DNA from: Dictyostelium discoideum
Lineage: Eukaryota
Assembly (NCBI GenBank): GCA_000004695.1
Contig: CM000155.2
Span: 2,048,001-2,112,000 of the forward strand
DNA: 64,000 bases
Reading direction: 5' to 3'
Shown: positions 21,434 through 34,119 of the stretch, piece by piece
Layout of the letters: each line of letters begins with the position of its first letter
Numbering within the stretch: the stretch's first letter is position 1
Translations under genes and position numbers: made by a program
Notes under the pieces: model-generated
What the model was told of the DNA's origin: nothing
Database searches by the model: none
The model's input: the letters and a program-made list of their open reading frames with translations, nothing else

Positions 21434-21736
21434 ATGAATGAAGATGGAGAATCATCATGGATGAGCACATGGCAAGGTGAGGATGAAAGTTCAAAAGACG
21501 GAGCCGATGATACTTTTCCAGCATTAAGAGGAAATATTGGAGATTGGTCATCATTTATGATAGCCATGGATGATGAAGATGGAAAAGAACTTACAAAATC
21601 ATTATCATCAATTAATTTAAAATTAAATAAACAATCTGCTGGTAATACTAGTAGTAATAATTTTGGAGCAAATCATCCACTTTCATCAATCCAGTCATCA
21701 GCAAATACATCAACAACATCATTAACAAGTTCGCCA

Positions 21737-21774
<38 letters not shown>

Positions 21775-24331
21775 TAATAATATACCAAGTAAATTAAAAG
21801 GTTCAACTGGAATTTCTTCACCTTCACCTTCATCACCATCAACATCATATACAAATTTAAAGGGTAGTTCAGGAATTTCAACAGCTCCATCATCACCATC
21901 AACTTCGTCAACAAGTTTAAAATCATTTTTTGGTGGAAATTCAGGAGGAAATTCATTACAAAATTCACCATCGGCTTCATCAACAAATTTAAAGGGTAGT
22001 TCAGGTATTCAAAATCCAAATAAACCAATAATTGGTTCATCAAAACAAAAACATGTTCACCAACAATTTTCCAAAACCAATTTTTCCAATTTATCAGCTT
22101 CCATTCATTATGATGCAAATAATTCATCCTCTTCATCACCAACATCAGGTTCACCAATTACTCCACCAATTTCTTTATCAAATTCACCAAATCTTCAAAG
22201 TATTCCAAAAATGAATTTAAGTAATAATAACAATAATAATGGTTCATTTAGTTCATCACCAGGTAATTTAGCATCATCACCACCATTATCATCATCTAAA
22301 GAATCTGAAACATCATTTTTTAATTTATTTAATAGAAAGAAAAAAGAAAAAGAAAAATCATTTACTGGTGGTAATATTTCAGGTCATCAACAACAAAGTA
22401 CAATTAGTACTTTATCAATTGATATTCATGATGGTAGTTCAACAATGTCATCACATATGGAATTTTCATATTTGGAAGAACATGAAGATACAACATCACA
22501 TGCATCAGGTTTAGAAATGTCAATGAGTAGTGATAAAATTTATGAAGGTTGGATGGAAATGTATATTCAAAAGAAATGGAAAAAGAAATGGTGTGTACTT
22601 CGTGGCATTCATTTAGAATATTATAAAGGTTGGTGGGAAGATCAACAAGGTGCACAAGATAGTGAAGAATGCGGTAAAATTTTATTAAATTATTGGTATA
22701 CCTTTTCAAAACCAGTTTTAACCGATGCTAAATTCCATTTTCATATTACTCAAGGTTCAGAAGTTGAGAAAGCAACTGGACTTGGTAATGTTACAAAACT
22801 AAAATTTAGATTGGAAGAAGAACATATTGCAAAGAAATGGATTGATGAATGTGAGAGAGTAATTAAAAAGAGAAAAGAAACAACAGTAACACTAAGACCA
22901 TTGGCTGAACATAAATCTGGTGGTATTTTAGGTAATATAGGTAGAGGCAGAAGTAATACTGTTTCAATGCCATCATTTGAAGCGGTTCCAGAATCAAAAG
23001 GTCCAAAAGTTTGTATACCAAATGAATTGGTAGATTGTTTAGAACCCGATGAAAAGATACTTTTGGATAAAGTTAAACTTTTATTGGATGAATTTCCACC
23101 AAAACCATTACCACCTGGTGAAACACCATCATCTTATCGTGCAAAACCAAGATCAAGTGATGGATATTATCGTGTTTTATCATTGGATGGTGGCGGTTTA
23201 AGATCAGTTATGGTTTGTGTATTAATTGAACGTATAGCTAAACGTTATCCAAAGTTTTTAGAACATGTTGACGTTTTCACAGGTACATCAGCTGGTTCTA
23301 TCGTTGCTGCTGGTTTAGCATTTGAATTCCCACCAAAAGGTACACGTCGTGTTTTAGAATTGACCGCATTACCAGTATTTGGTAAGAAAAGACCAGGTTT
23401 CAATATGGGTAATGCAAAATATTTTGCACGTGTTTTACGTGCCTCTTGTTATGTTTTCTTCCAAGATAGAAAGTTTTATGAAGCACAAAGAAAACTTGTA
23501 GTACCAGCTTTTCAATTGGATAGTGCATGGCCACCCGAAGCTGCCCAATTACAACCAGAAGTTCGTAGATGGCAACCACGTGTTTTCCATAATATTGGTA
23601 AATGTGAGGGTTACCTTGAAACCGATGTAATTGGTGATGTGCTATTAAGATCAGCATCAGCACCAACTTATTTCCCATCTTATCAAGGTTATATCGACGG
23701 TGGTGTATTTGCAAATAATCCAGCGCTATCAGCAATTTCATTGGCAATGTCACCAAGTTTAGATCAAATTCCAGCGGATAAAATCATTTGTCTTTCAATT
23801 GGTACAGGTTCATCTTCACACTATATGGAAGGTGGCCAAGATTATGATTGGGGTCTTTTAAATTGGGCACCAAAATTGGGTAATCTTTTAATGGGTTCAC
23901 AAGTTGATTATCTCACTCAACTTTGTGAGAATATGTTGGGTCAAAGATTCCATCGTTTAAATCCTGAATTGGGTGAAAATACTTCAATGGATGATCCAAA
24001 ATTGGTTTCAGAATTAGCAACTCTTGCAAATACTATTGATCTAACTAAAACTTTTGAATTTGTTGAAAAATATTTCATTTTACCAGAAGATCTTGAACAA
24101 CCACCAACTTCACCAACATCAACCAATATTAACTCTACACCAAATTTAAATCTTGGTAATCTTAAACCAGACTTAAATGATACAACTTTATCACCAAGAA
24201 CTCTATATGTAAATAATAGTACAGGTAGTTCAGAATCACCACGTAATATAACACCACGTAATATAACACCACGTAATATTTCACCAAGAAATAACGATAT
24301 TGATTCTTCAATACCATTAACTCCAAGATAA
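21434..24331 (+). CDS. Patatin-like phospholipase domain protein (iPLA2-like), 965 aa, long Ser/Asn-rich N-terminus
   Basis: The patatin oxyanion/glycine-rich motif is DGGGLRSV, the GxSxG nucleophile elbow is GTSAGS (23281-23300) and the catalytic-Asp motif is DGGVFANNP (23695-23725). The N-terminal ~330 aa are low-complexity S/N/P. The C-terminus has NITPR repeats. Confidence 0.8.
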
Positions 24332-24500: not shown

Positions 24501-25696
24501 TTATTTATTTAACATTTTTTCTATTGTCATTTTACTTGAGCAATATGGACATGGGCCATTAATAGAACTTGAACCAATTACAGTTGTGGGTAATGAAAAT
24601 AACCATTCACTAATACAATGATAATGAAATTGTTTACTACATTTTAAATTATTACAAGTTACATTTGGTAATGAAGTCATTGATTTTATATTATTTTCAT
24701 TATCAAGTTTGTTATTATTATTATTATTATTGTTATTATCATTATTATTATCATTGTCATTATTATTATTATTATTATTATTTGTTTCTTGTTGTAAATT
24801 TTGTGGTAAATGATGAGTATAACAAATACTACATTGAATTATAATTTCTTCAATTAATGTATTATCCATTGATTTCAAAGGAAATGATAGTTCTAACATT
24901 TTTTGAAAATTATCAATTGGTGAAGATCTTTCAAACCATTGTTGAGCACTATATTTTTTATTCCAAAGTTGATGTAATGGTTGGGTTTTTGATGATGGAC
25001 CAATGAAATCAACTTTATAGGGTGCAATTCTTGGTTGATTTGGGTTAACTTCGAAACAAATAGAACAACCGTTACCAATTGCAATTCTACGAAATATTGA
25101 TGATCTTCTTGGATTAATTGGTTCTAATACCCATGATTCACTATCAATTTCTTCCATAAAATTAAAGAATTCTTGATATTCATAATCTATCATAATTTGT
25201 ATCTTTTTTAAAATATTTGAAATTGATATTGAATTATTATTATTATTATTATTATTGTTTTCAAAATTATTATTATTATTTTTATTATTATTATAAAATG
25301 AATTATCATTTGTTGAAGTATTAATTGATCTTAATTTTGTAATAAATTCTGTTGAATTTAGTGGTAAATCACATTTTACGAATGGGAATTGAGTTGGATA
25401 ACCTATTGGTATACTAAATTCAACAATGAATTCACGTTCTTTAATATCTAATAGCATAATTTCAAATGATGATAATGATTTATCAATGTTTATAACTTTA
25501 TTCCAACCAATTTCATCAATTTCATTTGAAATTAAACTAAATGTATCAAATGGTAATGTAATTATTTTATTTGAAGTTGTCAATGTTGATGTACCTGTAT
25601 TTATTGTAATTCTATCTAAAATATCTTTTAATTCAAAAAAGAATTGTTGTATATTTTTACATTGAATAAATCTCTTTAATATGTTAAATTGAGGAG

Positions 25697-25728
<32 letters not shown>

Positions 25729-26022
25729 TTATTATTTTTATTTTAATATTAATATTAAATTTTAAATAATGATAAAAACATTTTTAATAACTTGAACATG
25801 AGGTAATAATATATCATAAAGTTCTTTTGTACAATTAAATTCTAAATCTTCAATGTATAAAGTTGAAGTTGTTTCACTATTTATGCTATTACCACAACCA
25901 TTTGATAGTTTAATTTCGATTGGGTATTGTTTACCTAACACTTGTATAAAGCCTGAATATTCACTCTGTTGTTTGTTGGTTGGTATTAAAAGTGGAAATA
26001 AAGGTTCTTCATTTAAATTCAT
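24501..26022 (-). CDS. fncL: FANCL-type E3 ubiquitin ligase (Fanconi anaemia group L orthologue); complement(join(24501..25673,25792..26022)).
   Basis: Exon 1 (ELF domain) reads EPLFPLLIPTNKQQSEYSGFIQVLGKQYPIEIKL, matching human QCPLLLPQNRSKTVYEGFISAQGRDFHLRIVL. The central UBC-RWD-like part reads IDEIGWNKV...FSIPIGYPTQFPF. The C-terminal RING/PHD reads CSICY...CNNLKCSKQFHYHCISEWLFSL...GPCPYCSSKMTIEKM, matching human CGICY..CDNSQCGQPFHQICLYEWLRGL...GECPYCSKPITLKM. The intron has a GTTATT donor and AAAG acceptor in phase 0. Confidence 0.8.
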
Positions 26023-26700
26023 GTGTCCTATCTGTTTTTTAAATATATATAAAATGTTTATGAAGAAGAAAAAAAAATTAAAAAAAAATTTTTTTCTTTT
26101 TATTTTTTTTTAATTTTTTATTCTTTTTATTTTTTTTTTTTCAATTGAATTTCCCAAAAAAAAACAAATATAGAAAAAAAATAAAAAAATAAAAAAAATT
26201 GATTTTGGTTGAATTCTTTTTATTTTATATTTTTATTTTTTTTTTTATTTGAATGTTCTTATCTAGATTATTTTTAAAAAAAAATAGAATCAATTTCAGG
26301 AAATTAAAAAAAAAAAATAAAAAGTTTTAAAACCACACTTTATAAATTTAAATATCTGGGTAATATAATCTGGGAAAAAAAAAATTAAAAAAAAAAAAAA
26401 AAAATTAAAATAAAAAAAAAAATAAAAAAAAAAAAATAAAAAAAATTTTAATTCGAGAAAAAAAAAAGGTTATCGACATTAAATTACCCATTTGTTTTTT
26501 TTTTTTTTTTTTTTAAATACACATATTGTAACATAGTTTAACACCATTTCATAGTGTGGGGGTGTTTTAATTTTAATTTATTATTATAATTTCTTTTATT
26601 ATCTAAGATAATAATATATTTATATATAAAAAAAAAAAAAAGTATTCTCAAAAAAACACTTTTTTTCATTATTTTTTTTTTTTTTTACCAGGTTTTTCAA

Positions 26701-26741
<41 letters not shown>

Positions 26742-27199
26742 ATGATGAAACATAAAGGAAAAGATGTTTTAAAAGTTAAAGTTGAAATATTAGTTAAAAA
26801 AGTAGGCAATTTAAAAGAATTAAATGGTGGATCAGTTTTTGTTTATTGGAGAAGAGGTACATCTAAACAATCAGGTGAAACACATCATATGATAGTTAGA
26901 AATGGTGAAGCCATTTTTGAAGAGAAAATTTCATTTGAGAGTAAATTCTTTATAGATGCTAAATCTCAAAAACCTGATGAAAAGAAATTATCACTTCAAT
27001 TAAAAGAAGAGAAAAAGAAATCACAAGGTAAAGTTTTAGGTAAAATAGAATTGGATTTAACATCATACATGAATTCAAAACATAATCAACCAATAACTTT
27101 ATCATTTACAAAAGGTTTAAAACCTGAACCACAAATATTTGTATGTATTAAATTCTTATATATATAAATATATATATAATATAATTTATGTATATTAAT

Positions 27200-27230
<31 letters not shown>

Positions 27231-29686
27231 CTTCATTATAATAATAATAATAATAATAATAATAAAAGTGTTCATTTAATACTATACCATTAAAACATAA
27301 TAATAAACCATTAATTAAAGTAGGTGGTAAAGATGCATCAAAAGATCCAAGAATAGTTAGAACATTTGGTGGTGAAGATTACTTTTTAGATAAAACTGAT
27401 GATGAATTATCAGATACAACTGTTGATACTTCTATGGCAAATGATATTGTAAGTTTTCTTTTTTCTTTTTTTATTTTTTATTATATATTAATATTTTATT
27501 TATTTATTTATTTATTTTTATTTATTTTAGACATCAAATGATTACTCAGATGAAGATATAAATGATGATTTAGGAGAAAGTAAAAAAGATTTAAAGAATG
27601 AAATTGATAGATTATATAAAGAGATTGAAGGTATAGAGAGTGAAAGCTATGAAAGATTACAAACTATCAAAGAGAAAGAAAAAGATATAGAATCATTAAA
27701 AAAACAAATTAAAATTTTATCTGAAGATAATCTTGAAAAAGATATAAAAATTGAAAATCTTTTATTAGAAAAAGATAATTTAATTGAACAACAAGTTAAT
27801 GAAGTTGCAAGATGTTAGTAAAATAAATTATAAATTATAAATAATAATAATAAATAATAATATATAATAATAATTATTATTAATATATATATATATTTTT
27901 TTTAATAGATTCTTCTGATCCAACATCAGAAGTTGAAATATTAAGACAAGAAAAGATGGAAAAGATAGCGATAATTACAGCACAGGAGAAAGAGATATCA
28001 AAATTAAAGAAGCAAATTAAACAAACTGCATTATCTAATACAGAATTTTCAAGTACGTCAGGTGCAGATTTAAGAACTAAATATCAAGCATTGCAACAAG
28101 AGAATGAGCAACAAGAAAAGTTGATATCACAATTGGAAAAGGAGAAACAGGATTTAATAGAAAAACAACAACAGCAACAGCAACAACAACAGCAGTTATA
28201 TTCATCAGCATCATCTTTATCGAATATTGGTGGAAATGCAGGATCGTTAAATAACGGTAAAAAGATACAAAGTCCAGAGATTGTGCAAACTAAATCGAAT
28301 AATACATCAGGATCAATTGAAGAATTGAGAAAACAATCAGCAGCTTATAAACAAGAGTTGGATGAAAAGGCATTAGTTGAAAGAAGTATATTTTTAGGTG
28401 AAGTGCAATTCAGAGGGAATTTACCAGTTAGTGGTATTAATTTATTCGATGGTTTGATCGCATTGGGTGTATTGAAAGATTATAAAATTGGTGTCAGAGT
28501 TTTCTCAAGTATTAATATCGCATTTGAACATACTTTTAAAAAGTCATCATCAGATTCTTCATTATTGGCTTACTGGTTATCAACTTCATGTTTATTATTA
28601 GCAAAAATTAAAAATAAAATGGAATTAGATCAACCACTTGCCAATGGTGGTGGTGGTGGTGGTGGTGGTAATTCCAGTCCACAATATGACCAAAATGGTC
28701 AATTATCACCAATTTCAAGTTTTGAATATAATTTAAAAACAATTATCTTTAAATTTTATTCAAAATTAGTTCAAAATGCTTATAATAAATTATCACCAGT
28801 TTTGGTTAAAAGTATTTTACAACATGATATTCTAGCATTTAATAGTGGTAAAATTTCAAGGAGAAAATCAACACCTGATATTAATTTAAACAATATTAAT
28901 TCAAATAATAATAGTAATGATGGTGCTGGTGGTATTGGTGTTGGTGGTGTTATTACAACATCTGGTAGTATACCATCTTCACCTCAACTTCATTCTCATA
29001 ATAATAATAGTAATAATAATAATAATAATAAAAATAATAATAATAATAATTTTAATAGTAATTTAACAAGTAATACAACATTAGATATTTTACAAGAATT
29101 CTTTGAAATATTAAGACAAAATTATGTTCATCCAAGTTTAATTGGTCAATTTTATTCACAATTATTTTATTATATAAATGCATGGTTATTAAATTCATTG
29201 AATAATATTAGAGGATTGTGTTCGGTGGTTAATGGTTTCCAAATGAAGATTGAGTTATCAAAGATTCAAGATTGGGTTTCAATTAGTCATTTAGATGAAT
29301 CAATTAATCAATTGGAACCAATGATTGAAACTGCTAATCTATTGGTAATGGATAAAGAGTTGTTATCGGATGAGGAAGTACTTCACCAAGTTTGTCCATC
29401 AGTTTCAATGTATCAAATTAAACATTTACTACAATCTTTTCAAACTGATCAAATCAATAGTGAAGAAATACCTGATTCTGTTTTTCATTCAATTGATAGA
29501 CTAATTCATATTAGAAATGAACCATTACATGCTGATATCAATTTAGATATCTCTTTTATGCATCAATTATCTTTAGATTTCTTAACAAAAGATCCCCAAT
29601 ATGGTAGAGAAAGAAAAGATAATACAACTACTACTTTTAATATAAATTCTTATAATACTGGTAGTAGTACTTTTAAAAGATTTTAA
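26742..29686 (+). CDS. NT-C2 domain + coiled-coil + DIL (dilute) domain protein; approx join(26742..27144,27324..27448,27531..27813,27909..29686).
   Basis: The N-terminal ~130 aa (KVKVEILVKKVGNLKELNGGSVFVYWRRG...HMIVRNGEAIFEEKISFESKFF...GKIELDLTSYMN) resemble the EEIG1/EHBP1-type N-terminal C2. Exons 2-3 are acidic/coiled-coil (GTAAGT and GTTAGT donors, TTTTAG/AATAG acceptors, all in frame). The last exon has a coiled coil, then a DIL-like region (LFDGLIALGVLKDYK..., YWLSTSCLLL..., FYSQLFYYINAWLLNSLNN...). The exon1/2 junction is ambiguous: the GTATGT donor at 27141 is out of phase and the GT at 27145 fits. Confidence 0.6.
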
Positions 29687-30009
29687 AATATAATAAAAAA
29701 AAAATAAAATAAAAATAAAAAAAAAAAAGAGATTTTTAAAAAAAAAAAACGTTGAAAATACTTTTTTGAATTTTTTTTTTTTTTTTCTATTTTTTTTCTA
29801 AACACAAAGATATTTAAATTTATTCTCTGAATTTTTTTCATTTTTTTTTTTTTTTTTTTTTTTTTTATTAAAAAAAAACTTTTTTTTTTTTTTATTTTTA
29901 TTATTAATTAAAACTCTTTATATTTTTAAAAAAACATAATATATTATTTATTTATTTATTTTTTTATTTTTTTATAAATATATTATATATATATATATAT
30001 AAATTTAAA

Positions 30010-32742
30010 ATGATAAAAAATTTAATTTCAGCATTTTCACAAGGTGTTGGAATTCAAAAAAAGGAATTACCATCAACAATAATTTTAAATAAAGATGATT
30101 ATAAAGAAGCCAATTATTATAATTATTATAGAAATTTAGAATTAAATAAACCAGATGAAGTATTAGCAAGAAGAATTGCAGGTTTAGCACCAATTGCATA
30201 TCAATATTATAATGTTTCAAGTTTTGATAATAATCAATTTAAAATTGTAGATTTTTCAATTGATTCAAAATTGAATGATACATGTTTAACATGTGTTTGG
30301 ACACAAACCTATAAGAATGAATCAAAAACACCGGTTGAAGCAGTTTATAGAATTCCATTATCACCATTATCAACGGTATCAGCATTTTCAGTACAATTCA
30401 ATGGTAAAACATTACATGGTAAAATAAAAGATTCAACCAAGGCACAAGAGAAATACGATGATGCAATTGCAAGTGGTGGTCAAGCATTCCTTGCAGAGAA
30501 ATCAAAAGATGATGATAACTATTTCAATTTTAAATTAGGTAATATACCACCAACTGAATCATCAATTACAATTCATATCACTATGATCTCTGAAATTGGT
30601 AGTCATTTAAATTCATTACATTATCTATTACATCGTTACTGTTTTCCACAATCGTCAAATTATAATTTTTCATTATCATTATCAGTGAATTTAAGTAATT
30701 CAATTAAATCAATTTTTTTTGATGGTGATAAATCACATTCACTTCAATATGAAAATAAAGAGAAAACAAAATGTATAATTCAATATAAAAAATCACTTGG
30801 TTTTAATACTCAACCAAATATTCTAATTGTATTTGAATTGGATGATTTAAATAAACCACAATCATTTATTGAAAAATTATCAATTAATAAAGAAGATATT
30901 AAAAACAATCCACATTCAGATTCAGATTCAGATTCAGATGATGAAGAAAATAAAAAAGAAAATGAAAAATCATCATATGCAATTGCATTAAATTTTTTCC
31001 CAAAATTTGAATCAATTAATAAAGAAGATATTTATCAAAAAGGTGAATTTATATTTTTAATTGATTGTTCTGGTAGTATGAGTGGTAATCCAATTGATTC
31101 AGCAAGAAGAGCATTGGAAATTATTATTAGAAGTTTAAATGAACAATGTAAATTTAATATTTATTGTTTTGGTTCAGGTTTTAATAAAGCTTTTCAAGAG
31201 GGATCTAGAAAGTATGATGATGATTCTTTGGCCGTGGTTAATAGATATGTTTCAAATATTAGTGCAAATTTAGGTGGAACTGAATTATTACAACCAATTA
31301 AAGATATCTTATCAAAAGAGATTGATCCAGAATATCCAAGACAAATTTTCATTCTTACTGATGGTGCTGTCTCTGATAGATCAAAATTAATTGAATTTGT
31401 TTCAAAAGAATCAAAAACAACTCGTATCTTTACCTATGGTATTGGTAGTAGTGTAGATGTTGAATTGGTAGTTGGTTTAAGTAAAGCTTGTAAAGGTTAT
31501 TATACACTAATTAGAAATAGTTCAGATATGGAAACTGAAGTAATGAAATTATTATCTATCGCTTTTGAACCAACACTTTCAAATGTATCTTTTGATTGGA
31601 GTCAATTATTAGATCTAAGCAATGGTAAAAGTACAACTATAATTCAATCACCTACTCAAATTAGACCAATTTTTAATAATGAAAGAATGATGGTTTATGC
31701 TACTATTGAACTCGATAATGATATTTCTAATAACATTGAAAATCATGGTCAACCAGTAATTGTAACAATGAATGCTGATGGTCCATTAGGTGATAGATTA
31801 TCTTATCATGTCGAATTGGATTTTAAAAATTATTCACAATCTAATAGTATTCATACATTGGCTGCTTTTAAAAGAATTCAAGATTTAGAAGAAATTGAAA
31901 GAAAATCTTCAAAAGAAACTGAAAAACTTGAAATCATCAAATTGGGTAAGAAATATAATTTGGTTTCAAAACATACATCTTTAGTTGTAACTTCAGATTC
32001 TGATTCACCAACTGAAGATACAATGAAAGTTATAAATATTCTTCCAAATAATTCTCAACATCCAATTATTGTTGACAGATGTCATACTTTTGCTGTTAAT
32101 TTTAATTCACCACTTCAGTACCAACAACAACAACAACAACAACAACAAAATTTCAATAGTGGATTTGCACCACCACCACCACCAATGATGTCATCAGGAC
32201 CACCACCACCCCCAGGTTCATCTTTTGGTGCACCTCCACCTCCACCCCCAGGTGGAGCTTTCCCAACATCATCAATATCAGAAAAAAAATCATCATCACA
32301 ATCATCATCATCATATTTACCACCAACAATGTCATTGTCAAGAAAATCATCATTGTCACCATCATCACCATCAAAAAATTATCCAAGCCCTAAACTCTCA
32401 AGTCCTTCTTTATCGTATGGTTCAACTCAATCAGAAAGCACTCCATCAAATGATCCATTAATTTCTTTATTAGCTAAACAAAAAGCAAATGGTTCTTGGA
32501 GTAAATCATCTATTCAAGATCAATTCTCTTCTGCTATTAGTAAAATACCAAATGAACTTTCTGCTGTTGAAGACGTTTGGGCAACTTTATTAGTTATCTC
32601 AAAAATTATGAAAACATTTGCTTCTCAAAAATCAAAATGGGAACTTAGTGTTCAAAAATCAAATAAATGGGTTAAACAACAATTATTAAAATTAAATCTT
32701 TCTTTTGATCAATTTTTAGAACTTGCAAAATCAAATGTATAA
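30010..32742 (+). CDS. VIT + von Willebrand factor A (vWA) domain protein with C-terminal polyproline tract (VWA5A / inter-alpha-trypsin-inhibitor-like), 910 aa
   Basis: The N-terminal VIT-like region (30100-30600) is followed by a vWA MIDAS motif FIFLIDCSGSMSG (DxSxS) ...GGTEL... IFILTDGAVSD. The segment APPPPPMMSSGPPPPPGSSFGAPPPPPPGG lies at 32160-32260. The C-terminal region is Ser-rich. Confidence 0.75.
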   Translation: MIKNLISAFSQGVGIQKKELPSTIILNKDDYKEANYYNYYRNLELNKPDEVLARRIAGLAPIAYQYYNVSSFDNNQFKIVDFSIDSKLNDTCLTCVWTQTYKNESKTPVEAVYRIPLSPLSTVSAFSVQFNGKTLHGKIKDSTKAQEKYDDAIASGGQAFLAEKSKDDDNYFNFKLGNIPPTESSITIHITMISEIGSHLNSLHYLLHRYCFPQSSNYNFSLSLSVNLSNSIKSIFFDGDKSHSLQYENKEKTKCIIQYKKSLGFNTQPNILIVFELDDLNKPQSFIEKLSINKEDIKNNPHSDSDSDSDDEENKKENEKSSYAIALNFFPKFESINKEDIYQKGEFIFLIDCSGSMSGNPIDSARRALEIIIRSLNEQCKFNIYCFGSGFNKAFQEGSRKYDDDSLAVVNRYVSNISANLGGTELLQPIKDILSKEIDPEYPRQIFILTDGAVSDRSKLIEFVSKESKTTRIFTYGIGSSVDVELVVGLSKACKGYYTLIRNSSDMETEVMKLLSIAFEPTLSNVSFDWSQLLDLSNGKSTTIIQSPTQIRPIFNNERMMVYATIELDNDISNNIENHGQPVIVTMNADGPLGDRLSYHVELDFKNYSQSNSIHTLAAFKRIQDLEEIERKSSKETEKLEIIKLGKKYNLVSKHTSLVVTSDSDSPTEDTMKVINILPNNSQHPIIVDRCHTFAVNFNSPLQYQQQQQQQQQNFNSGFAPPPPPMMSSGPPPPPGSSFGAPPPPPPGGAFPTSSISEKKSSSQSSSSYLPPTMSLSRKSSLSPSSPSKNYPSPKLSSPSLSYGSTQSESTPSNDPLISLLAKQKANGSWSKSSIQDQFSSAISKIPNELSAVEDVWATLLVISKIMKTFASQKSKWELSVQKSNKWVKQQLLKLNLSFDQFLELAKSNV

Positions 32743-33219: not shown

Positions 33220-34119
33220 ATGTCAATTTTAATTACTGGTAGTACTGGCAAATTTGGAAAAAATTCAATCGAATTTTTATTATCAAAAGGTGTTGACCCA
33301 AAATCAATAATTGCATTGGTTCGTGAAGAATCAAAAGGTAAACAATTCCAAGAAAAAGGTTTAAATGTTAGAATTGGTGATTATACAAATGAAGAATCTT
33401 TAGTAAAGGCTTTCCAAGGTATTGAAAAATTATTATTCATTTCATCAAGTGATATTGAAAATAGAATTGATCATCATAATAATGTAATTAAAGCAGCTAA
33501 ACAAGTTGGTACAATTAAACACTTGGTTTATACAAGTTTCTTTAGAAAAGAAGAGGTTGAAAAAAGTGGTAATTCTTCAATTGGTTTTGTTGGTAAACCA
33601 CATATTATTGCTGAAGATTTGATTGAAAAATCTGGAATAAATTATACAATTCTTCAAAATATTCTTTATACCGATTTCTTAACAGAATTCTTTTTTGGTG
33701 AAAAGGTATTAGAGAATGGTATTTTTTTCCCAGCAGGTAATGGTATTGGTAACTATGCCATTAGAAAAGATATGGCTGAAGCTGCAGTAAATATATTATT
33801 GGATGAAAATCAACAAAAACATCTAAATAAAAAGTATATCATTTCTAATGAAGAAAGTTCATCATTTGAAGATGCTGCTAAAATTCTCTCTGAAATCAGT
33901 GGTAAAACTCTTTCATATACAAGTCCAGATGTTGCAACATTTGAAAACACTTTAACTGGTTTTGGTGTCCCTCCAGTTTACATTCAACTATCAGTTGCTT
34001 TTGGTTTGGCCATTCAAAATAATGAGTTTAATACCCTTAAAACTGATCTTTCAACATTGTTAAATAGAAAACCAACTACTTTAAAACAATTTTTATTTGA
34101 AACTTATAAAAAACAATAA
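33220..34119 (+). CDS. NmrA-like NAD(P)-binding atypical short-chain reductase (299 aa)
   Basis: The N-terminal Rossmann motif is ILITGSTGKFGKNSIEFLL (GxxGxxG), with overall NmrA/quinone-oxidoreductase-2-like architecture (..VRIGDYTNEESLVKAFQGIEKLLFISS...). Confidence 0.7.
   Translation: MSILITGSTGKFGKNSIEFLLSKGVDPKSIIALVREESKGKQFQEKGLNVRIGDYTNEESLVKAFQGIEKLLFISSSDIENRIDHHNNVIKAAKQVGTIKHLVYTSFFRKEEVEKSGNSSIGFVGKPHIIAEDLIEKSGINYTILQNILYTDFLTEFFFGEKVLENGIFFPAGNGIGNYAIRKDMAEAAVNILLDENQQKHLNKKYIISNEESSSFEDAAKILSEISGKTLSYTSPDVATFENTLTGFGVPPVYIQLSVAFGLAIQNNEFNTLKTDLSTLLNRKPTTLKQFLFETYKKQ

Follow-up and report, generated by a model that had tools for sequence, protein, structure and literature searches.

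The NT-C2 domain is treated as a membrane-targeting module in the papers on the plant protein PMI1 and the yeast protein Hoi1. A preprint on PMI1 showed that an extended NT-C2 region is required for plasma-membrane localisation. In the case of Hoi1, the NT-C2 domain joined to a partner-binding C-terminal tail is required to bring BLTP2 to contacts between the endoplasmic reticulum and the plasma membrane; for both proteins, the core NT-C2 domain failed to reach the membrane in isolation. Binding of the NT-C2 domain of EHBP-1 to phosphatidylinositol 4,5-bisphosphate (PI(4,5)P2) membranes and to endosomes depends on two basic patches, one N-terminal to strand 1 and the other within strand 2 (PMC4894640). 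In the tails of class V myosins, a groove in subdomain 1 accommodates peptide motifs from Spir, melanophilin and MICAL1, and subdomain 2 binds Rab11 (PMC5021521). The present analysis concerns a gene of Dictyostelium discoideum that lies at positions 26742-29686 on the forward strand of a 64,000-nucleotide stretch of contig CM000155.2 (positions 2,048,001 to 2,112,000; hereafter, the window) and that encodes an NT-C2 domain first and a DIL domain last in one polypeptide. Its architecture is that of an old, widespread and apparently unstudied protein family. The account favoured here, with fair but limited confidence, is that this single gene of an old eukaryotic family encodes a dimeric, motor-less adaptor or tether between a membrane and cargo.

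The gene consists of four exons, running from an ATG at 26742 to a TAA at 29684-29686. Joined and translated, the four open segments amount to a 2640-nt coding sequence for an 879-residue protein, which is identical at 879 of 879 positions to the D. discoideum AX4 entry XP_629482.1 (EAL61045.1; UniProt Q54CQ9), annotated as 'C2 calcium/lipid-binding region-containing protein'. It is an ordinary protein-coding gene of the AX4 reference annotation and is correctly annotated there; public annotation already contains the gene with its exon structure and the two domain assignments, and as a sequence feature nothing changes. A sequence-only reading of the window had proposed one gene joining an NT-C2 domain, a coiled coil and a DIL domain without a motor, and this proposal is borne out by the identity to the reference and by strong matches of both hidden Markov models (HMMs) in a HMMER search against Pfam. 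On the whole protein, NT-C2 (PF10358) matched with E 7.5e-29 and 100.7 bits (cut-off 25.2), and DIL (PF01843), located in the last exon as proposed, with E 5.5e-26 and 91.2 bits (cut-off 24). On the C-terminal fragment, DIL scored 92.6 bits and was covered from profile position 1 to 104 of 105. The two peptides singled out in that reading are present, LFDGLIALGVLKDYK at residues 466-480 and FYSQLFYYINAWLLNSLNNIR at residues 702-722. A Pfam scan of the 879-residue protein with E values up to 1 returned solely NT-C2 and DIL, with no Myosin_head, IQ, CH or bMERB (DUF3585) domain. Because it lacks a head and IQ motifs, the protein is not a myosin.

The NT-C2 match begins at residue 7, and nearly all relatives tested likewise carry the domain at the N-terminal start. 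An AlphaFold2 (AF2) model, built on an alignment of 11 dictyostelid orthologues, shows a beta-sandwich at residues 9-143, with a predicted local distance difference test score (pLDDT) of ~80 in the strands. Foldseek returned for the N-terminus the C2B domain of Munc13, the C2 domain of intersectin-2 and the N-terminal C2 domain of CEP120 at E ~1e-5 and a target template-modelling score (TM-score) of ~0.7. The domain had been placed in exon 1 with a length of ~130 residues; most of the domain does lie there, but the length is slightly short, as the last beta-strand (residues 131-143) extends into exon 2. Across the 11 dictyostelids, mean column identity is 64%, with the C2 domain, the linker that follows it and the C-terminal globular tail domain (GTD) conserved and the low-complexity loops not.

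The NT-C2 domain carries a net charge of +12 and an isoelectric point of 9.8. Two basic stretches, KHKGK (residues 3-7) and WRRG (residues 36-39; a W-[RK]-R-G motif), are kept family-wide, and we infer, from position only, that they are counterparts of RRLRR and HRRRK in EHBP-1. In this respect, the protein resembles EHBP1/EHBP-1, a Rab8/10 effector composed of NT-C2, CH and bMERB domains, as both have an N-terminal NT-C2 domain, a putative membrane anchor in Q54CQ9, with basic residues at the positions of the two EHBP-1 patches. Both also place a trafficking module at the C-terminus and would share the logic of a linker from membrane to cytoskeleton or cargo. Unlike EHBP1, Q54CQ9 has a myosin-V-type tail at its partner end and a coiled coil in the middle. 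Lacking the CH as well as the bMERB domain, it cannot be counted as an orthologue of EHBP1.

The C-terminal region extends well past the Pfam domain. In the AF2 model, residues 424-853 form a helical bundle that is broken by two disordered loops. A loop-free profile of residues 420-860 searched against the PDB matched the GTDs of myosins Vb, Va and Vc with E values of 2e-27 to 1e-24, with plant myosin XI and yeast Myo2p next at ~1e-14; the match spans profile positions 59-329 (~270 of 354) and residues 64-362 of the 394-residue Myo5b chain. Foldseek gave the same ranking, with the MyoV GTDs at E 4e-12 and a TM-score of 0.6-0.74; over the MyoV, MyoXI and Myo2p GTDs together, the alignments spanned 370-455 columns and the target TM-scores ranged from 0.54 to 0.74. 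By profile and predicted fold, the C-terminal ~430 residues are shown to form a complete two-subdomain myosin-V-type GTD that reaches beyond the 105-residue DIL core. All the sequence and fold comparisons made thus place the protein in both the NT-C2 and the DIL/globular-tail family.

The combination of the two domains had been described in the sequence-only reading as unusual. This does not hold for its distribution, as no fewer than 54 clusters at 50% identity contain the two domains together and both Pfam families are present in the precomputed annotation of 11 of 11 dictyostelid orthologues. The claim of rarity stands in one respect: a search of the accessible literature for Q54CQ9, DDB_G029274x and NT-C2 together with DIL returned no paper on the gene or describing the architecture and no functional study. 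Zhang and Aravind are said to have defined the NT-C2 domain in 2010 in Gene 469:18, where they reportedly discuss fusions to cytoskeleton-related domains and may list NT-C2 with DIL. A passage of the PMI1 preprint paraphrases the 2010 paper as covering fusions of this type.

An exhaustive HMMER search with the full-length profile against 1.84 billion cluster representatives gave 1012 matches at E <1e-3. The best 150 of these (149 non-query), all of them representatives of clusters at 50% identity, were inspected for domain content. Both domains were found in 54 of the 149 by a local iterative jackhmmer search, whereas a dictyostelid-only N-terminal HMM undercounted the two-domain proteins (32); a myosin P-loop was found in just three. 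When 28 representatives were scanned with Pfam, 25 had both domains above threshold, one was a myosin (P0138, with Myosin_head, IQ and DIL) and two had DIL only, these being N-terminally incomplete or divergent. A word-indexed search with the loop-free C-terminal part returned zero matches despite the presence of nine source proteins in the database and is not evidence of absence.

Orthologues in other amoebozoans had been named as a check on the proposal; going by the sources that carry names, family members were found in four groups: Archamoebae (Mastigamoeba balamuthi and Pelomyxa schiedti, with two paralogues each), Variosea (Phalansterium and Soliformovum), Discosea (Luapelamoeba, Vermistella and Balamuthia) and Tubulinea (Pyxidicula). 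Outside Amoebozoa, the architecture occurs in Discoba, namely in Heterolobosea sp. BB2, Pharyngomonas kirbyi and Euglena gracilis. Complete open reading frames (ORFs) from transcriptome assemblies of Phalansterium, Luapelamoeba, Heterolobosea BB2, Pharyngomonas and Euglena carry both domains, and therefore the two domains lie on one mRNA.

Among the best 150 of the 1012 matches, two-domain proteins scored 100-330 bits, whereas the highest-scoring protein that carries a myosin head reached ~80 bits. Because the two-domain proteins outscore any myosin by far, the impression given by these scores suggests that the tail of the family is a distinct, old lineage rather than the product of repeated recent fusions. 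The same scores bear on another explanation of the protein, in which the GTD would regulate class-V-like myosins such as MyoJ and MyoH, either by sequestering cargo receptors in the manner of a dominant-negative tail or by binding myosin heads in trans as in the autoinhibited state. The complete GTD is indeed closest to the tails of myosins Va, Vb and Vc, and the peptide pocket of the MyoV GTD also makes inter-GTD contacts in the off state (PMC5021521). In Dictyostelium, the class V myosin MyoJ acts on contractile-vacuole membranes (PMC2733752). However, the tails of the family are much closer to each other than to myosin tails, and a role as a myosin regulator leaves unexplained the strongly conserved NT-C2 domain and coiled coil in every family member. 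This explanation agrees with the anatomy of the protein and is considered unlikely.

A second, longer paralogue of 1290-1545 residues, with an NT-C2 domain, a long coiled coil and a DIL domain, is represented by sequences P0025, P0030, P0031, P0033 and P0038 and by loci L003 and L004. The sources that carry names are Polysphondylium violaceum, Heterostelium and Acytostelium, to which assembly GCA_001606155.1 is added. We take this assembly to be that of Tieghemostelium lacteum.

An acidic coiled coil had been proposed between the two domains, and the AF2 model together with an analysis of charge and heptads found an acidic linker followed by heptad helices. Three long helices (residues 203-288, 293-332 and 339-384; ~180 residues) are modelled with a pLDDT of ~80-86. 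In a crude heptad test, their a and d positions are hydrophobic in 50-75% of cases in the best register, as against 10-30% at the other positions. The linker segment SKDPRIVRTFGGEDYFLDKTDDELSDTTVDTS, which opens with SKDPRIVRTFGGEDYFLDKTD..., has roughly two-thirds of its positions invariant among the 11 dictyostelids. Archamoebae, Variosea and the long paralogues show a similar pattern, G-E-x-Y-x-L...T-x-S...D. This segment has low AF2 confidence, and a Pfam scan returned no family match to it. PMI1 and Hoi1/FAM102-EEIG1 share with Q54CQ9 the NT-C2 domain, which the PMI1 and Hoi1 papers regard as the membrane-targeting module, and the C-terminal tail of Hoi1 binds a partner. The conserved flanks that PMI1 and Hoi1 need for membrane targeting may be paralleled by this linker. 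Their C-terminal parts, in contrast, are unrelated to the GTD, that of PMI1 being a domain of unknown function and that of Hoi1 a disordered tail that binds BLTP2. By analogy, the linker may be a PMI1-like functional extension or a regulatory, phosphorylatable acidic stretch.

The charges of the individual parts also allow a reading of the protein as an autoinhibited switch, in which the acidic linker, the coiled coil or the GTD would fold onto the basic NT-C2 domain until cargo or phosphorylation opens the molecule. Complementary charges of this kind are present, as the +12 of the NT-C2 domain faces -8 in the linker, -10 in the coiled coil and -9 in the GTD. The high conservation of the Ser/Thr/Asp-rich linker and the failure of the core NT-C2 domains of PMI1 and Hoi1 to reach the membrane without flanks or tail agree with it as well. 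On the other hand, the AF2 output comprises pLDDT, a predicted template-modelling score (pTM) of 0.40 and secondary structure, and it is silent on contacts between domains. Such a switch is distinctly unlikely as an explanation in its own right; it is nevertheless compatible with, and not exclusive of, the adaptor or tether favoured here.

A further explanation would deny that the two domains belong to one protein at all, or would place the first splice site elsewhere: the model would be a chimera of adjacent NT-C2 and DIL genes, or a weak donor would truly be used between exons 1 and 2. It goes back to the sequence-only reading, which regarded this junction as irregular, with the strong GTATGT donor out of phase and a weaker GT 4 nt downstream fitting instead. 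A complete codon precedes the strong donor at 27141, which pairs in phase 0 with an AG acceptor at 27267-27268 that had been missed; the weaker donor is needed only if the acceptor at 27319-27320 is taken. The alternative intron (27145..27320, forward strand, donor GT at 27145 and acceptor AG at 27319-27320) is in frame, yet it was rejected. It would drop the 17 residues CSFNTIPLKHNNKPLIKV and put Val-Leu in their place. This segment contains the last C2 beta-strand of the AF2 model and is kept in 9 of 11 dictyostelid orthologue models, as far as Cavenderia and Heterostelium (53-54% overall identity). It is taken as coding because no peptide would stay conserved in an intron of 6% G+C. On matched N-terminal fragments, the NT-C2 profile is covered from position 2 to 138 of 143 with the corrected splice (104.4 bits) and from 2 to 123 with the alternative (102.5 bits).

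Comparison with related genomes and transcripts points in the same direction. Intron 1 lies at the same codon boundary in D. purpureum (locus L001, ...caaatcaat/GTATGT...tatAG/tgttcattt), in Cavenderia fasciculata (L002, ...ttgcat/GTATGA...tttAG/tgtacattt) and in P. violaceum (L009, 76 nt, GTATGT...AG), the slashes marking the splice sites, and in the genomic DNA of the first two the peptide is conserved right after the GTATG... intron. The positions and phases of all three introns are common to D. discoideum and P. violaceum. An organism resembling P. violaceum provides an intron-less contig of 3.1 kb (L005; assembled from run SRR8446776 as well) that reads through the junction as ...PEPVIS/CSFNTIPIK.... 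Its alignment to the genomic locus of P. violaceum falls into five blocks, and it is taken to be mRNA-derived because all four introns are missing from it. The transcript evidence for the junction, the closest approach to cDNA evidence, comes from contigs of relatives such as this one.

The three introns of the D. discoideum gene are short (82-128 nt) and AT-rich (3-6% G+C); their ends are canonical, their phases agree, and the resulting protein is that of the reference annotation. Single transcripts of relatives, both the intron-less contigs, which hold one ORF with both domains and CSFNTIPIK, and the complete transcriptome ORFs named above, encode the two domains together and speak against two separate genes. 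In favour of a chimera or of the weak donor, the orthologue models P0008 and P0011 also skip the CSFNT segment. In these two models, the last C2 strand is wholly or partly missing where exons 1 and 2 meet, and this is the segment that is lost in the alternative model. This gap resembles the splice mistake of the sequence-only reading, and the two models look wrong. A chimera or a truly used weak donor is regarded as all but refuted. The gap in two automated models at this junction calls for care when genes are modelled in AT-rich genomes. As a separate observation, the D. purpureum model P0003 has an unrelated C-terminus (…KIVVLIQSIFTYYATNYL), which suggests a missed splice or a frameshift.

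The adaptor role in vesicle traffic that had been put forward from sequence is a reasonable extension of the known roles of both modules. In such an adaptor or tether, the coiled coil would form a parallel dimer, and the two NT-C2 domains would attach to an acidic, phosphoinositide-rich membrane through the KHKGK stretch and the WRRG strand. A receptor on a vesicle or organelle would be held by the two globular tails, and the likeliest mode is a short peptide motif placed in the subdomain-1 groove, where a Glu-Tyr pair falls in the alignment. The cargo membrane would thereby be docked at, or tethered to, a second membrane without movement, possibly in competition with class-V-like myosins for cargo receptors.

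The candidate groove rests on a comparison with myosin Va, in which E1595 and Y1596 at the H4''-H5 site contact Spir and melanophilin peptides (PMC5021521). In Q54CQ9, an invariant S-F-E560 with Y561 (which varies in 2 of 11 orthologues) aligns with the 'NF..EY' of 'NFDLTEYR' in MyoVb, the equivalence of Va and Vb at the Glu-Tyr pair resting on homology. Class V and XI myosins (Myo5a/b/c, Myo2p, MyoXIk and MyoJ) resemble the protein in a two-subdomain GTD preceded by a coiled coil and perhaps in this Glu-Tyr pair. They differ from it in that Q54CQ9 has no motor or IQ motifs and has a C2 domain at the N-terminus, Val and Ile at the Rab11 sites and two long disordered loops.

Several points weigh against the tether. 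The mean pLDDT of the model is moderate, 62 overall with ~80-90 in the folded parts. The Glu-Tyr match adjoins a 3-residue alignment gap that removes the equivalent of D1592. The canonical mode of Rab11 binding was rejected on residue identity. The substitutions Q1753R in myosin Va and Q1748R in Vb abolish Rab11 binding (PMC5021521). In a HMMER alignment to Myo5b, Gln1748 of MyoVb falls on the invariant V767 and Tyr1714 on the nearly invariant I735, the Myo5b numbering being an offset from chain length that was checked by residue identity at both Rab11 positions. A canonical Rab11 contact is unlikely because these two residues are replaced by Val767 and Ile735. Moreover, lipid binding, dimerisation and cargo binding of Q54CQ9 are all properties that we infer, and the gene identifier is deduced rather than taken from a record; it is probably DDB_G0292742, since the neighbouring genes are numbered DDB_G0292746 (patatin) and DDB_G0292744 (fncL).

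Animal proteins offer another comparison. Afadin/Canoe and RADIL, which are motor-less DIL proteins, provide a precedent for the Dilute domain as a scaffold component outside a myosin. Afadin and RADIL carry RA, FHA and PDZ domains and are not known to carry a C2 domain. The Pfam scan of Q54CQ9 found no RA, FHA or PDZ domain, and because none of their other domains was found, the protein is not of the afadin/RADIL type.

A bolder form of the tether reading is offered tentatively and is more doubtful than probable. In this form, the family would comprise unrecognised, very old motor-less vesicle tethers, 'parked myosin-V tails' on phosphoinositide membranes of Amoebozoa and Discoba and possibly of early-eukaryotic origin, that capture receptor-bearing vesicles delivered by class V/XI myosins. 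If true, it would define a hand-over step from transport to docking, and the short and the long paralogue of dictyostelids would make these organisms a tractable test system. The present finding is of value as a pointer to a family in which a predicted membrane anchor and a complete myosin-V cargo-binding tail occur in one protein, a modest experimental lead. Such a family could reveal how, in the absence of a motor, a target membrane retains the cargo that myosin-V-type tails recognise. The coordinates of the gene and of its parts are collected in Table 1.

Table 1. Exons, introns and protein regions of the NT-C2/DIL gene, in window positions (residue numbers refer to Q54CQ9)
Feature	Position	Strand	Residues	Remarks and basis
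Exon 1	26742..27140	+	1-133	Start codon and most of NT-C2; ORF/translation, identity to XP_629482.1
Intron 1	27141..27268	+		128 nt, GTATGT...AG, phase 0, 6% G+C
Exon 2	27269..27448	+	134-193	Last NT-C2 beta-strand (CSFNTIPLKH), then conserved acidic linker
Intron 2	27449..27530	+		82 nt, GTAAGT...AG, phase 0
Exon 3	27531..27813	+	194-287	Includes first base of codon 288
Intron 3	27814..27908	+		95 nt, GTTAGT...AG, phase 1
Exon 4	27909..29686	+	288-879	Rest of codon 288 to residue 879 and TAA stop
NT-C2 coding region	26760..27295	+	7-142	Interrupted by intron 1; PF10358
Conserved linker segment	27338..27433	+	157-188	Orthologue alignment
Predicted coiled-coil region	27558..28198	+	203-384	Interrupted by intron 3; AF2 and heptad test
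Complete myosin-V-type GTD, by profile and model	28316..29605	+	424-853	Profile against PDB and Foldseek
Low-complexity loop 1 in GTD	28631..28699	+	529-551	Poly-Gly; pLDDT <50; length varies among orthologues
Low-complexity loop 2 in GTD	28823..29071	+	593-675	Asn/Ser/Gly-rich; pLDDT <50; not conserved among orthologues
Pfam DIL core	29147..29449	+	701-801	PF01843

Four neighbouring genes were also inspected. Upstream, at 21434-24331 on the forward strand, lies a gene for a 965-residue protein with PH and patatin-like phospholipase domains and long Asn/Ser-rich tracts, which matches DDB_G0292746. This patatin family protein is among the core chemotaxis phosphoproteins (PMC6397043). The reverse strand carries, at 24504-26022, a FANCL orthologue (Pfam FANCL_d2, FANCL_d3 and FANCL_C) with an intron between ~25584 and 25761; this gene is fncL (DDB_G0292744), for which a knockout has been made (PMC2730050). 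Downstream, both on the forward strand, are genes for a 910-residue VIT and von Willebrand A protein whose C-terminal part is Pro-rich with poly-Q (30010-32742) and for a 299-residue NmrA-like NAD(P)-binding protein (33220-34119). The neighbours were considered and dismissed as a functional clue, as the patatin/PH, FANCL, VIT-VWA and NmrA-like genes are unrelated and gene order is uninformative in this eukaryote.

The window as a whole is extremely AT-rich, with ~20-35% G+C in coding stretches and 5-15% in spacers. The spacers on either side of the gene (26060-26740 and 29690-30000) consist mostly of long A and T homopolymer runs with 5-15% G+C, including a run of ~40 A's immediately 5' of the start codon at 26742, and homopolymer-rich spacers of this kind are typical of Dictyostelium.

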